In this document: positions 11,280 to 21,173 of the stretch, in pieces
How positions within the stretch are numbered: the first letter of the stretch is position 1
How the letters are laid out: each line of letters opens with the position of its first letter
Source of the DNA: a virus
DNA: 21,173 nucleotides
Direction: 5' to 3' (one strand)
UHGV virus genome: UHGV-0100642
Notes under the pieces: generated by a model
Database searches by the model: none
Seen by the model: only the letters and a program-made list of their open reading frames with translations
Told to the model about the DNA's origin: nothing
Program-made: the position numbers and the translations under genes

Positions 11280-12645
11280 TGCTGATTATATAGACCAACT
11301 TCCAGTCAATCTTTTAGCTACGCCCAAGGAGGTGTTGAATTCATCGGGATATCTTCGCTCATTCCCGGGCATTGCCAAACGATCTGATGTGAACGGTGTA
11401 TCTCGCGGCGTCGAGTACAACATGGCGCAGAGTGCTGTTTATCGCGTGTGTGGTGGCAAGCTGTACAAAGGCGAAAGCGAAGTCGGTGACGTCGCCGGAA
11501 GTGGTCGTGTATCAATGGCGCATGGTCGTACATCTCAGGCGGTAGGAGTTAATGGTCAACTGGTCGAGTATCGCTATGATGGCACGGTTAAAACCATCTC
11601 AAACTGGCCTACAGACAGTGGATTTACGCAGTATGAGTTAGGTTCGGTTCGCGACATTACGCGCTTGCGCGGGCGTTATGCGTGGTCAAAAGACGGCACT
11701 GATTCATGGTTTATCACTGACCTTGAAGACGAATCGCATCCTGACCGCTACAGTGCACAATATCGCGCAGAATCGCAGCCGGACGGCATCATCGGTATCG
11801 GCACATGGCGAGACTTCATCGTCTGCTTTGGTTCATCGACGATTGAGTATTTTTCCCTGACTGGTGCAACCACCGTTGGTGCCGCTTTGTATGTCGCACA
11901 GCCATCGCTGATGGTGCAGAAAGGTATTGCCGGAACCTACTGTAAAACTCCATTCGCTGATTCGTATGCGTTCATCAGCAATCCGGCAACAGGTGCGCCG
12001 TCTGTTTACATCATCGGATCCGGTCAGGTTTCACCAATCGCCAGCGCGAGCATTGAGAAAATCCTCCGCTCCTACACTGCTGATGAACTGGCTGATGGTG
12101 TGATGGAATCGCTGCGATTTGATGCGCATGAGTTGCTGATTATCCATCTTGCGCGCCATGTTCTCGTGTACGACGCATCTTCAGGCGCCAATGGTCCGCA
12201 ATGGTGTGTACTGAAAACAGGCCTGTATGACGATGTGTACCGCGCTATCGACTTCATTTACGAAGGCAATCAGATAACGTGCGGCGATAAGCTGGAATCG
12301 GTGACCGGGAAATTGCAGTTCGACATCAGCAGCCAGTACGACAAGCAACAGGAACACCTGCTGTTTACTCCGTTGTTCAAAGCGGATAACGCCAGATGCT
12401 TCGATCTGGAGGTGGAATCATCCACTGGCGTAGCTCAGTACGCCGACCGCCTGTTCCTCTCTGCAACCACTGACGGCATAAATTACGGTCGTGAGCAGAT
12501 GATTGAGCAGAATGAACCGTTCGTTTACGACAAACGCGTTTTGTGGAAGCGTGTCGGGCGCATCAGGAAAAATGTCGGCTTCAAATTGCGCGTTATCACG
12601 AAGTCACCTGTCACTCTGTCAGGCTGCCAGATAAGGATCGAGTAA
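11227..12645 (+). CDS. Tail accessory protein, P22 gp10-like (functional copy downstream of the insertion)
   Basis: About 472 aa, collinear with P22 gp10 as recalled (…[18 protein letters not shown]…[17 protein letters not shown]). The track start at 11218 appears to be a non-ATG codon; the first ATG is at 11227 ([11 protein letters not shown]...). Stop overlaps the needle start (TAATG). Confidence 0.88.
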
Positions 12646-13493
12646 TGGCTGATTCGAATCTCAATGTGCCGGTAATCATTCAGGCTACACGGCTCGACAC
12701 ATCAGTCCTTCCACGCAATATCTTCTCGCAGTCGTATCTGCTTTACGTTATCGCACAGGGCACTGATGTTGGTAACGTGGCTAACAAGGCCAACGAGGCC
12801 GGACAGGGCGCTTATGACGCACAAGTCAGGAACGATGAGCAGGATGTGATTCTCGCTGACCATGAGCAGCGAATTTCTGCTGCGGAAGCAACGCTTGTTA
12901 ATCATGAGGAGCGAATCAGCCAGGCAGAATCAACTCTTCAGGAACATGAAACGCGAATCGCTCAGAATGAAAGCGATATTGCGTCGCTTGATACCAGAGT
13001 TCAGTCGCTGGAGTCTCAGGTTTCAGACCATGAAACGCGCATTGATGCTCTGGAGTATGCAACCACACGCAAGAAGTCAGAGGTTGTTTACTCTGGCGTA
13101 TCAGTAACCATCCCGACAGCGCCGACCAACCTTGTTAGCCTGCTGAAAACGCTCACGCCGTCATCCGGGACGTTGGCACCATTCTTCGACACTGTTAACA
13201 ACAAGATGGTTGTGTTCAACGAGAACAAAACCTTGTTCTTCAAGCTGTCGATCGTCGGGACGTGGCCCAGCGGAACCGCCAACAGGTCAATGCAGCTAAC
13301 CTTTTCCGGCTCTGTTCCTGATACGCTGGTCAGCAGTCGTAATGCGGCGACAACAAACGACAACATCCTGTTAGCTACATTCTTCAGCGTGGATAAAGAC
13401 GGATTTCTTGCCACAAATGGCAGTACGTTAACCATTCAGTCGAATGGTGCGGCGTTTACTGCCACAACCATCAAGATAATCGCGGAGCAGTGA
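12645..13493 (+). CDS. Tail needle protein, P22 gp26-like with a divergent C-terminal knob domain
   Basis: [43 protein letters not shown]... matches the gp26 N-terminus, followed by heptad-repeat coiled coil (HEQRIS/HEERIS/HETRIA). 282 aa. C-terminus differs from P22 gp26 and resembles the longer knob-type needles. Confidence 0.88.
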
Positions 13494-18038: not shown

Positions 18039-18128
18039 CTTTTCAAACACCAGGAACGTGCAAAAACCAAATATGTAGAACGCGAGGTTTATCGTATCCC
18101 TCTGCATAGGCGATACCTTTGCTGATTG

Positions 18129-18614
18129 TTATCTGATGTTACTGCTACTGTTGCATGTGACTGTATTTCCAAACCCTGAATTGCAGTTTGTGTAAGTGTC
18201 AACTCGTGTTGGATAGGGTTGAGTTATAACAGGCTGTCTCGCTTTTTGCTCGATCGCTTGCATTGTGTTTACAGCCTGATAATTCAATAAAGCCTGCTGG
18301 AATGCTTGGCTTTGTGCTATTTGTTGTGCTTGTTCTTGGCTTTGTAATTGAACATAAAGATTCTGAAGCTCAAGTCTTGCCTGAGCGTCACTTATCTTGC
18401 CTTCATCAACACCTTGCCCGAGCATCTTTGCAGCAAGGACATACAGCTTAGGTGTTGGTGCAGATGCCATGCGTGAGTCGTTCTTCACACTGGCATCAAG
18501 GCAATTAGCCATATCGCTAAGCTTTTGATAGCGTTGTTCGCAACTTGCTTGATAGTCACTTACTTTTGCGCATCCAACCAGCAGAAGCGGGATAATTAAC
18601 AGTGATTTTTTCAT
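18129..18614 (-). CDS. Lipoprotein (161 aa), candidate superinfection-exclusion or lysogenic-conversion factor
   Basis: Signal peptide MKKSLLIIPLLLVG followed by Cys (lipobox LVGC), a Q-rich predicted helical middle and a Cys-containing C-terminus. AAGGAG 8 nt upstream of the ATG at 18614. Lies downstream of mnt on the same strand, in the position P22 uses for sieA. Confidence 0.7.
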   Translation of the reverse strand: MKKSLLIIPLLLVGCAKVSDYQASCEQRYQKLSDMANCLDASVKNDSRMASAPTPKLYVLAAKMLGQGVDEGKISDAQARLELQNLYVQLQSQEQAQQIAQSQAFQQALLNYQAVNTMQAIEQKARQPVITQPYPTRVDTYTNCNSGFGNTVTCNSSSNIR

Positions 18615-18684
18615 ATGGTTAACTCTCCTTAGTTTTTCACAGGATATCATGAAGGCAATGCCATTTTAGCCGGAAACTAGATTT

Positions 18685-18951
18685 CTATGTTTCCTTTTTA
18701 TTATTGCTATACATGGTCTTAAGCGTTTCAAAAACCATTTTCCTAACCATATCGGATTGTTGTTCTGCCATACGCTCTGCATCGTCAATGTAAACTGATG
18801 CAGAGATTTGTTTATCCAATGATTCCTCAATCGCTGCAATTATCTCTGAGTTCAGCGATCTGTTATTCATCTTCGCACGCTGTTTAATTTTCGCGTGGAG
18901 TTCATGCGGAAGTCTCAAGTGAAACTGCGCCTCGTCGTATTTGCTGTACAT
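18685..18951 (-). CDS. mnt: Mnt-like ribbon-helix-helix repressor (Arc/Mnt family)
   Basis: ...NNRSLNSEIIAAIEESL...DDAERMAEQQSDMVRKMVFETLKTMY resembles P22 Mnt as recalled. AAGGA RBS before the ATG at 18951; the track start at 18984 is further upstream. Confidence 0.8.
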   Translation of the reverse strand: MYSKYDEAQFHLRLPHELHAKIKQRAKMNNRSLNSEIIAAIEESLDKQISASVYIDDAERMAEQQSDMVRKMVFETLKTMYSNNKKET

Positions 18952-19072
18952 CCTTGATGCCTCACCAGGTGGGTGGAATGGCATCGTAACTTACTGGATA
19001 AATACTCAATAGTACCATTTCGGCATGCAATCAAATCATGGTTGCACCATATCATTCGTCTGGAGCAATGAA
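18952..19072. promoter_or_regulatory. Divergent intergenic control region between mnt (-) and tailspike (+)
   Basis: 121-bp AT-rich spacer that must hold the mnt promoter and any tailspike-proximal promoter. Contains the short palindrome CACCAGGTG at 18963-18971. No promoter hexamers could be assigned confidently. Confidence 0.4.
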
Positions 19073-21173
19073 ATGTCAGATATCACCGCAAATGTTGTGG
19101 TAACCAATCCGCGCCCAATATTCACTGACTCGCGCACGTTTAAGGCTATTGCAAACGGACGCGTGTATATCGGCCTTCCTGATACCGACCCTACCATTGC
19201 TGCCAACCAAATTCCCGTTTATATCGAAAATGAGGATGGAAGATTGGTTGAAATTTATCAGCCTCTAATCATCAATGCGGCTGGTAAAATTGTATATAAC
19301 GGACAGGTTGTAAAGGTGGTAACTGCGCAAGGTCACAGTATGAAGGTCGTGGATGCTTACGGCGTTCAAGTCGACTACATCAGTAACATTCTTAAGTATG
19401 ATCCGGACCAGTTCAGAAACTTTGCCTTAGAAAACTTTGATTACTCAATTTATAAGCGCATTGTGGGATTTTCTTTCTTCACTGGCGCGACCGTTACGGA
19501 TTCCAAGCACACCCTCATTTGGGATTCAACTAATGGAGGAAACGGACATTATTATCGGTATCTTGGAACCATCCCTAATGGCGGCCTTGTAGTTCCACCG
19601 GCCAGCACTCCTGACTCAAACTGGGAAGACATAGAGCTTAATCAGATAGTCAGCATCCGAAAACTAAACGAGCTTTCCACGCAAAGCATCGCAGGCTATA
19701 TCGGCGTCAATATTGATATGCCGGTGGCAGTGAAGGATTCTGACAATCAGGGCGCGAAAATTAGCTCTGGTGTCTGCGTAACAAATCCGGTGCCCAACGC
19801 AAATATTATCAGAGCCACTAAAATTCAGTCTGTATTCAGAATTGATGGAGATAATGTCACAATTAGAGATGTTGTTGGGCTAGGTTCTGCCGCTTCTGAT
19901 AATGCTGCCACATCGGAATTCATCACCACTCGCATGCGATTCGTGGTCGATGGGCTGAGAACAAAAGGCCTGCGTTTTACTGGAATAAAAGCTAGCAAAT
20001 TTACAACAGGAATAAACGTAACAGGTTGCGATGATGTTGTTATTAAAGACTGTTATTTCGAGGATATGCAATATTCTCCAGTAACACTTGGCTCCGCTGG
20101 AGGATATGGTGTCTTAACAGGAGCAAGTAATGGCGTTCTTGTGGATGGTCTTAAATTCAAGGCTAACGCATATGGTCGTCATGCTGTATATATTAGTAAT
20201 GTTCAGCCATATGTTGACGTAGCGACGAGCGGAAGTTTTAACACAACGGTAAGAAATTGCGATCTGGATTATACACTCGCCGATTTGACTTTGAGTGATA
20301 GTGGGTTTGCTCCTATCAACGTAAGGTCTAGTGAAAATACAATCATTGAAGAAAACAGGCTCAAAGGTTCAGCTTCTTTAGTTAGCTTCAGCAATGATCA
20401 GGGGGCGATTTCTAAATGCATCATAAGAAATAACAGGGCGGTAGGATTAAAATCAGGGCAGGGAAGAGTCTGCGCTGCATTTAATCTAGGTCGTTCTGGC
20501 ATTCCTAATCCAATCACAGATATTGAAGTAAGCGGAAACTATTCAGAGATATCAAAAGGACCAGGTCAGCCTGATGGTAATGACCAAGCTGGCAGATTTA
20601 TCGGACACAATGGGCTGAGGATTATAAGGAACCATTGCATTCAGGAGACAGGGGCCGCTTATCTTTTAGATCGATGTTCAAATTTCTTTATTGACGAGAT
20701 TACTGATATTCTGACAAACACCGCAAATCCAGCAGGCGCTCAAACAATATATCTTAACGCATGCAGTAATGGCACCATAGGCAGCATTAAAACAAACCGT
20801 CCAGCGTTTGCAAACGGTAAGTCTAATATTGTCGGCGGTCTTGCTACTTGTTCAGAAGTGACTTGCAATTTTCAAAGATATATTGAATTCACCCTAACCA
20901 AAGGAGCTGTTTCATTAGTCGATGATGCCTTTGATATGATCTCTTCTGGAGGTATATCATTTGGTGATGGATTCATTACGGTAGCCTTACGTGCTCATGT
21001 TACCGATAGGGCAGTTGCTGGATGCACCGTTTATACGCGAACCAGTAATGGTGTAATCCTTACCAAGAGTGCAATTAACGATAAAACTATCACTATAAAT
21101 TTTCTCGTATCATCAACGGGTGCTTTGCAACCTATGAGCCAATACACAGGTAGAGTTGGTATAACTTTTTACG
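19073..21173 (+). CDS. Tailspike protein, 5'-partial in window (700 codons, no stop reached)
   Basis: N-terminal ~115 aa ([34 protein letters not shown]...[11 protein letters not shown]) match the P22 gp9 head-binding domain. GGAG RBS 8 nt upstream. The rest is a divergent domain with beta-helix-like repeats. Frame is open to the last base of the window. Confidence 0.9.

Follow-up and report, generated by a model that had tools for sequence, protein, structure and literature searches.

Tailspike Gene at the Distal End of the Late Region

The virus genome UHGV-0100642 was analyzed over a stretch of 21,173 nucleotides (nt), referred to here as the window, which ends within a tailspike gene. The window comprises a P22-type late region of the Sf6/HK620-like kind, with 96–97% identity to vB_EcoP-683R2, Gally, Sf6, and HK620 up to ~18100–18630. 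The tailspike gene is located at the distal end of the P22-type virion gene cluster, after the ejection-protein genes and immI, and its relatives have the genes for gp4, gp10, gp26, gp14, gp7, gp20, and gp16 upstream. In the tailspikes of P22, Sf6, and HK620, an anchor docks the trimer on the tail hub and a β-helix binds and cleaves the O-antigen, bringing the virion to the membrane. The receptor-binding modules of tailspikes decide which serotypes are infected and are used as typing and depolymerase reagents. The features of the locus are listed in Table 1; loci and proteins used for comparison carry L and P numbers, respectively.

Table 1. Features of the tailspike locus in the 21,173-nt window.
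Feature	Coordinates	Strand	Basis
Mnt-like ribbon-helix-helix repressor gene (immI remnant)	18685..18984	-	Pfam Arc PF03869 and Repressor_Mnt PF11423; directly upstream of the spike gene, divergent
GGAG ribosome-binding region; left edge of the whole-gene cassette	19059..19072	+	blastn match to L001/L002 starts at 19059
Tailspike gene, codons 1–700 of 701	19073..21173	+	Open frame, P0001, P0121, gene-end comparison; final Ala codon cut after its first base, stop and terminator just beyond the window
Head-binding (virion anchor) domain, residues 1–113	19073..19411	+	Pfam PF09008
α-Helical linker, residues 111–121	19403..19435	+	DSSP helix H111–121 in the model; limit of similarity to P22, Sf6, and HK620
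Small β domain with ...SxPDSNWE motif (Tail_spike_N-like), residues 128–190	19454..19642	+	PF18668, phrog_27156, 9vvr
Conserved connector, residues 191–226; probable 5' homology arm for β-helix exchange	19643..19750	+	Family-wide DNA conservation
Left crossover interval, codons 223–226 (D-N-Q-G)	19739..19749	+	Three-way alignment (see text)
Right-handed parallel β-helix, residues ~227–575; presumed glycan-binding/catalytic module	19751..20797	+	
C-terminal β-sandwich, residues 594–700	20852..21173	+	Strands E594–699 in the model; Foldseek whole-domain matches
Right crossover interval, codons ~678–682 (approximate)	21104..21118	+	Three-way alignment (see text)

A reading-frame scan showed that the open frame starting at 19073 runs for 700 codons and reaches the last base of the window, and the ATG is preceded at 8 nt by a GGAG Shine-Dalgarno sequence. 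The gene ends of the relatives read ...TTTTTACGCATAA, and the window ends with ...TTTTTACG. In the protein collection, P0121 matched the 700 amino acids of the window exactly and carried a terminal Ala in addition, and P0001, a 701-amino-acid (aa) protein of E. coli, was 99% identical over the full length. The initial annotation, which took the gene to be longer than 700 codons and cut by the window end, was correct as to the cut; however, the ends of the relatives together with P0121 leave only the last 2 nt of the final codon and the stop missing, and the protein is therefore not much longer than 700 aa. The complete protein has 701 aa and is essentially contained in the window, a point that the initial annotation had missed. 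A hairpin, AAAAAGGCCGCATAGCGGCCTTTT, is present directly 3' of the spike gene in the relatives. Promoter and terminator scans around the spike gene yielded nothing above the shuffled expectation.

Domain Architecture and Predicted Structure

The Head_binding domain (PF09008) was found over residues 1–113 with a score of 175.5 bits (cutoff 24) and an E-value of 4.6e-52. In a phmmer search of the PDB, P22 gp9 aligned to residues 1–126 only and Sf6 gp14 to residues 1–121 only, with E-values of 1e-39 to 1e-53, and Foldseek placed the anchor at 72–76% identity to the P22 head-binding structures and 60% to that of Sf6. The earlier statement that likeness to gp9 is confined to the first ~115 residues and is lost after KYDPDQ(F) is in agreement with these PDB alignments, which end at residues 121–126. 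Tail_spike_N (PF18668), the type found in CBA120 TSP1/gp66, scored 15.4 and 18.3 bits over residues 132–182, which is below its cutoff of 25; the same small β domain matched phrog_27156, annotated as "tail spike protein" (E 3.5e-9), and the family profile matched the tailspike 9vvr over the SxPDSNWE motif (E 1.7e-5).

An AlphaFold2 monomer model built on 42 homologues had a mean predicted local distance difference test score of 86.1, with values above 90 through most of the β-helix and low values at residues 1–26 and in the linker (109–125). Foldseek searches with the receptor-binding part retrieved the HK620 and Det7 gp208 tailspikes with a template modeling (TM) score of ~0.55 at 10–14% identity, and Pfam Beta_helix (PF13229) was detected on residues 227–700 with 29.5 bits against a cutoff of 25.9. 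The model thus predicts the succession of β-helix and C-terminal domain of a P22-like tailspike, and the fusion of a P22-type anchor to a divergent β-helical receptor-binding part, as first proposed for this gene, was recovered by the PF09008 match, the model, and Foldseek alike.

Compared with P22 gp9, the window spike shares a head-binding domain that is 72–76% identical over residues 1–113, a gene position that closes the late operon, behind gene 16 and an immI remnant, and the plan of anchor, linker, β-helix, and C-terminal domain; the relatives of the window also have a gtrABC operon downstream, as in P22. It differs from gp9 in showing no similarity past residue ~126, in having head-binding DNA that is only 68% identical, and in the extra Tail_spike_N-like domain and connector placed between linker and helix. 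PF09251, the endorhamnosidase receptor-binding domain (RBD) of P22 gp9, had no Pfam match in the window spike, which is not a member of that family. The other virion genes in the window are 96–97% identical to those of Sf6 and HK620, and of the P22-like spikes that of HK620 came closest to the whole RBD in fold (TM ~0.55). The spike itself departs from this phage group, since its head-binding domain is only ~60% identical to that of Sf6 gp14, its RBD is 10–14% identical, and DNA homology to the Sf6/HK620 group stops before the spike gene, at ~18100–18630.

Mosaic Structure of the Spike Gene

The identity profile along the protein showed that residues 1–~113 are conserved family-wide, that residues ~115–195 are common only to P22-type spikes of E. 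coli and Cronobacter (P0006, 100%; P0007, 76–100%), that residues ~196–225 are conserved in every relative, and that residues ~226–700 go with the Cronobacter/Kosakonia proteins P0002–P0005, whose N-termini differ. By blastn, the whole gene from 19059 onward was 99.4–99.6% identical (8–11 differences) to that of the E. coli prophages L001 and L002. Upstream of 19059, the DNA of L001/L002 is unrelated to the window and carries an ant gene, and E. coli prophages exchange the complete gene as a cassette that begins here. About 500 ordinary E. coli P22-like prophages matched the window only up to ~19103–19106. As identity to the E. coli prophages breaks at ~19104, the head-binding domain itself is not of the local Sf6 type. 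Over the head-binding segment, no phage record exceeded 69% nt identity, and the best matches of the anchor beyond close E. coli relatives were Cronobacter proteins (83–84%). The anchor is foreign to the surrounding Sf6-type genome, which had gone unnoticed in the initial annotation. At its very 5' end (19073–19106), the spike gene has ~30 nt of conserved DNA in common with ordinary E. coli P22-like spikes, although the head-binding DNA beyond them is below ~70% identical, and this short stretch is a possible further homology arm for whole-gene replacement.

DNA homology to the genes of Cronobacter L003 and Kosakonia L005 starts at 19553 and reaches 98–100% by 19733–19823. Relative to L006/L007, the loci encoding P0006, only three differences were found from the ATG to 19749, followed by an abrupt break. 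In a three-way alignment of the window, L006, and L003, the window follows L006 as far as 19749 and L003 from 19739 onward, and the left crossover is therefore confined to 11 nt. At the other end, the window is L003-like to ~21103 and 100% identical to L006 over 21119–21173. The specificity patch bounded by the two crossovers comprises codons ~227–680 (~1.36 kb), so that only the β-helix and C-terminal domain are replaced with respect to L006/L007. P0006 thus has the same first part, the same last 55 nt of the window, and an upstream mnt gene that is ~97% identical, whereas its codons ~227–680 are only ~50% identical at the aa level and represent another specificity patch in the same frame.

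Base composition followed the same division. GC content was 0.448 in codons 1–116, 0.455 in codons 117–226, and 0.423 in codons 227–600, and GC at third codon positions (GC3) was 0.466, 0.482, and 0.327, respectively. The lower GC reported earlier for the downstream region does exist; however, the drop (GC3 from 0.482 to 0.327) starts at ~19750 and not at 19420, and it belongs to the ~1.36-kb patch, not to everything after 19420.

The left crossover thus lies in the connector, ~110 codons past the textbook boundary between anchor and RBD, and its mapping to 11 nt makes this an unusually sharp natural example. Its position offers practical guidance for the engineering of chimeric spikes. The main interest of the locus lies in this mapping, in the conserved connector, and in the predicted common receptor of E. 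coli and Cronobacter discussed below; otherwise, the window spike is an uncharacterized tailspike of a well-known kind and leaves the picture of modular tailspike evolution unchanged.

Distribution of the Specificity Patch

The patch is rare. At ≥89% identity it was represented by only five 90%-identity clusters, with 33 member sequences in about 15 billion: one from E. coli (99%), two from C. sakazakii (P0002 and P0003, 96%), one from Kosakonia (P0004, 91%), and one from a JGI metagenome (P0005, 89%). In P0002–P0005, the β-helix and C-terminal domain are 89–96% identical (aa) to the window, the connector is shared, and gtrCBA follows, whereas the N-terminal anchors are entirely unlike that of the window; the nt identity of the C. 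sakazakii and Kosakonia genes to the window is 86–92% from 19553. The same helix was found behind four anchors in podovirus, siphovirus, and myovirus gene neighborhoods, namely, the P22 head-binding domain; a phrog_1640/T7-tail-like anchor adjoining large internal-virion-protein genes; an Ala-rich coiled coil adjoining baseplate J, wedge, and collar genes (a myovirus baseplate context); and Tail_spike_N adjoining tape-measure and NlpC/P60 genes (a siphovirus context). The near-identity of the module between E. coli and C. sakazakii prophages predicts a shared surface glycan.

In a tblastn search of residues 117–700 against 50,697 phage records, seven records were retrieved, none of them an E. 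coli phage, and the best, ADZ13622 of Cronobacter phage ENT47670, is a more distant protein, 43% identical and annotated as hypothetical. With 43% as the closest phage record and no PDB match to the β-helix, the spike is not near-identical to any characterized tailspike. By the same search, it falls into none of the serogroup-assigned E. coli receptor-binding protein subtypes covered here (≥30% identity and ≥60% RBD coverage), the prophage-derived receptor-binding proteins of Pas et al. (2023) not having been compared directly. A plasmid search returned matches to the head-binding domain only. Neither megablast nor distant blastn detected patch DNA in the 5,426 complete E. coli genomes searched, and these genomes accordingly gave no host serotype.

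The C. sakazakii locus L009 (GCA_032856045.1, 3705–9795) has the P22-type spike P0007 in an apparent prophage remnant. The phage genes there are limited to a P22_Tail-4 fragment, this spike, and gtrCBA, lying among the host genes minC/minD and dsbB. E. coli "hypothetical proteins" of 484–488 aa in the P0006 cluster were considered as evidence of breakage at the connector and dropped, as in strain EC50 they represent an insertion sequence (IS)-truncated spike in a decayed prophage. In that strain, the locus (L013; NZ_CP056073.1, 1746–9777) lies between sbcB and dacD and contains an integrase, IS30 and ISEc52 fragments, a 484-aa 5'-truncated P0006-type spike, and an intact gtrCBA. The truncated 484–488-aa form is the commonest member of the P0006 cluster (35–38 contigs), which suggests that the gtr operon persists, with the spike remnant as a passenger.

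The Connector as a Site of Exchange

Codons ~191–225 showed mostly 80–100% nt identity in L003, L008, L009, L011, and L012, dropping toward the 3' end, and the β-helix DNA of L008–L012 was only 35–60% identical to the window. The sole megablast match to a phage record, ENT47670 (78.6%), covered window positions 19547–19755. At identical amino acids, identical codons were more frequent in the connector than in the rest of the gene for L008 (0.69 vs. 0.36, p 7e-4), L009 (0.76 vs. 0.36, p 3e-5), and L011 (0.58 vs. 0.35, p 0.02); the enrichment was not significant for L010 and L012. It is plausible from these sequence comparisons that the connector repeatedly serves as a 5' homology arm, or hotspot, for helix exchange, with constraint at the protein level also contributing. 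The general principle is well established: the anchor is conserved within a phage genus and the RBD tracks the serogroup (Pas et al., 2023, PMC10408124), and RBDs are exchanged horizontally across genera, for which conserved DNA motifs have been proposed to assist recombination.

A more specific proposal can be put forward tentatively, at somewhat less than an even chance. The connector (36 codons, 191–226), together with the conserved 3' end, the terminator, and the gtr flank, may form a dedicated pair of homology arms through which one helix cartridge is exchanged among four virion architectures (P22-type podovirus, second podovirus-like type, siphovirus, and myovirus) across Escherichia, Cronobacter, and Kosakonia, and the 96% cartridge identity may report a shared O-antigen, e.g., O29/O3 or O103/O4. 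Were this so, the window spike would be a cross-genus typing or targeting reagent.

Putative Function and Receptor

The product is very probably the receptor-binding, and likely receptor-destroying, tailspike of a temperate Sf6/HK620-like P22-type E. coli podophage; its gene is a nested mosaic whose specificity patch is 96% identical (aa) to C. sakazakii prophage spikes with three other virion anchors, and O-antigen is the most likely target. The head-binding domain (1–113) would dock a presumably trimeric spike on the tail hub, as expected by analogy with P22, and the helical linker, the small Tail_spike_N-like domain, and the connector lead into the β-helix, followed by the C-terminal β-sandwich. 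The β-helix and sandwich would recognize, and probably cleave, a surface polysaccharide, of which O-antigen is the likeliest. The sugar-recognizing patch was probably swapped in from a pool shared with Cronobacter phages, and the complete gene also travels between E. coli prophages as the cassette beginning at 19059.

A convergent gtrC-gtrB-gtrA O-antigen glucosylation operon lies directly after the spike gene in all nine contexts inspected, whether podo-, sipho-, or myovirus-like (L001 12132–14793; L003 10490–13246; L005 10163–13069; L006 10138–12440; L008 4622–7334; L009 7134–9795; L010 7534–10426; L011 7158–9819; L012 7517–10274). The same operon is predicted after the window spike, where the window ends before its position. 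P22 gtrABC has been described as one of the superinfection-interference systems of the prophage (PMC10883804). Closely related O-antigens have been reported for C. sakazakii O4 and E. coli O103, as well as for C. sakazakii O3, C. muytjensii O1, and C. malonaticus O1 with E. coli O29 (PMC4599207). Owing to the gtr operon in nine of nine contexts, the role ascribed to gtrABC in P22, and the likeness of Cronobacter and E. coli O-antigens, an O-antigen receptor is favored, and it is probably one common to E. coli and Cronobacter.

E282, R287, Y345, R369, H370, Y373, D399, and R418 are invariant in family members that are 31–54% identical to the window spike, and D504 is nearly so. Such invariance of acidic, His, and Arg residues at this degree of divergence suggests a conserved active site, and these nine positions are regarded as candidate active-site residues.

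Several observations weigh against this assignment or parts of it. The β-helix had no sequence relative among PDB structures, by phmmer and by the family profile alike, and its fold neighbors are a mixture of hydrolases, lyases, epimerases, and non-enzymatic adhesins, all at ≤17% identity, and so do not point to one reaction chemistry, or even to catalysis as such. Adjacency of gtr genes is a common layout in temperate phages and is no proof of an O-antigen receptor, and gtrC does not co-vary with the type of β-helix. As for the mosaic, the right crossover is only approximate because L003 (92% nt) is not the actual donor, and the recombinant could be L006, with the window type as its parent, so that transfer in the direction given above is presumed.

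Co-transfer of the β-helix and gtrC as one specificity/immunity unit was considered and rejected as a general rule. L001 and L006 have the same gtr operon (blastn block of 95.8%) and different helices, and L001 and L003 have the same helix and no detectable gtrC DNA homology; only L003 and L005 have helix/RBD and gtr as one 4.4-kb block (88.7%). As the gtrC type does not track the helix type, the two are not one co-inherited unit.

Alternative Explanations

A simpler account of the gene, given in the initial annotation, is a two-module protein with a single specificity-setting swap junction right after the head-binding domain, at ~19420. The similarity to P22 gp9, Sf6 gp14, and HK620 does end at residues 113–126, the Lederbergvirus anchor has been delineated as ending at residue 124 in the HK620 tailspike (Pas et al., 2023, PMC10408124), and some database relatives, e.g., P0039, have only the head-binding domain in common with the window spike. 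However, residues 117–226 stay with the P22-type lineage (P0006, 100%; P0007, 76–100%) while the β-helix changes completely, the sharp break and the GC3 step fall at 19739–19749 and codon ~227, homology to differently anchored spikes sets in at 19553, and identity to the E. coli prophages is already lost at ~19104. A single junction at ~19420 is hence unlikely. That position marks only a deep domain boundary relative to P22, Sf6, and HK620; the visible junctions are at 19059, ~19104, ~19553, 19739–19749, and ~21104–21118, and the operative one is ~330 nt downstream of ~19420.

With regard to the target, the β-helix might act on a capsule or exopolysaccharide (K-antigen or a colanic-acid-like polymer), possibly as a lyase. 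This appears rather doubtful, since the fold neighbors, at ≤17% identity, also include O-antigen endoglycosidases (Det7, HK620, 9NA, and CBA120), an O-antigen glucosylation operon stands beside the spike in every context examined, and the conserved E282, D399, and D504 fit a glycosidase equally well. That the module only binds a glycan and has no enzymatic activity would be in line with the occurrence of the β-helix fold in the adhesins PfbA and Vag8 and with the lack of an assignable catalytic motif. It is nevertheless quite improbable, given that the podovirus tailspikes of like architecture studied so far (P22, Sf6, HK620, and Det7) are depolymerases and that acidic, His, and Arg residues are invariant across members only 31–54% identical. 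A depolymerizing tailspike directed at O-antigen stays the preferred explanation.

Neighboring Genes

Of the genes of P22 immI, arc and ant are missing from the window, which has the Mnt-like repressor gene; counterparts of this gene in E. coli prophages are annotated as "Arc family DNA-binding protein." L001 and L002, which have the same spike, carry an antirepressor (P22_AR_N/C) upstream. As the window lacks it, the spike cassette sits behind different immI configurations. The tail needle gene (12543–13493, plus strand) encodes an Sf6-type knob (PF16532, E 2.4e-116), indicating an Sf6-like and not a P22-like needle tip. An open reading frame of 173 aa (18129–18650, minus strand) lies between the gp16-like ejection-protein gene and the mnt-like gene; it matched phrog_6067 (E 2e-110, function unknown), showed no Pfam domain, and carries the annotation "hypothetical protein" in the several hundred E. 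coli P22-like prophages that have it.

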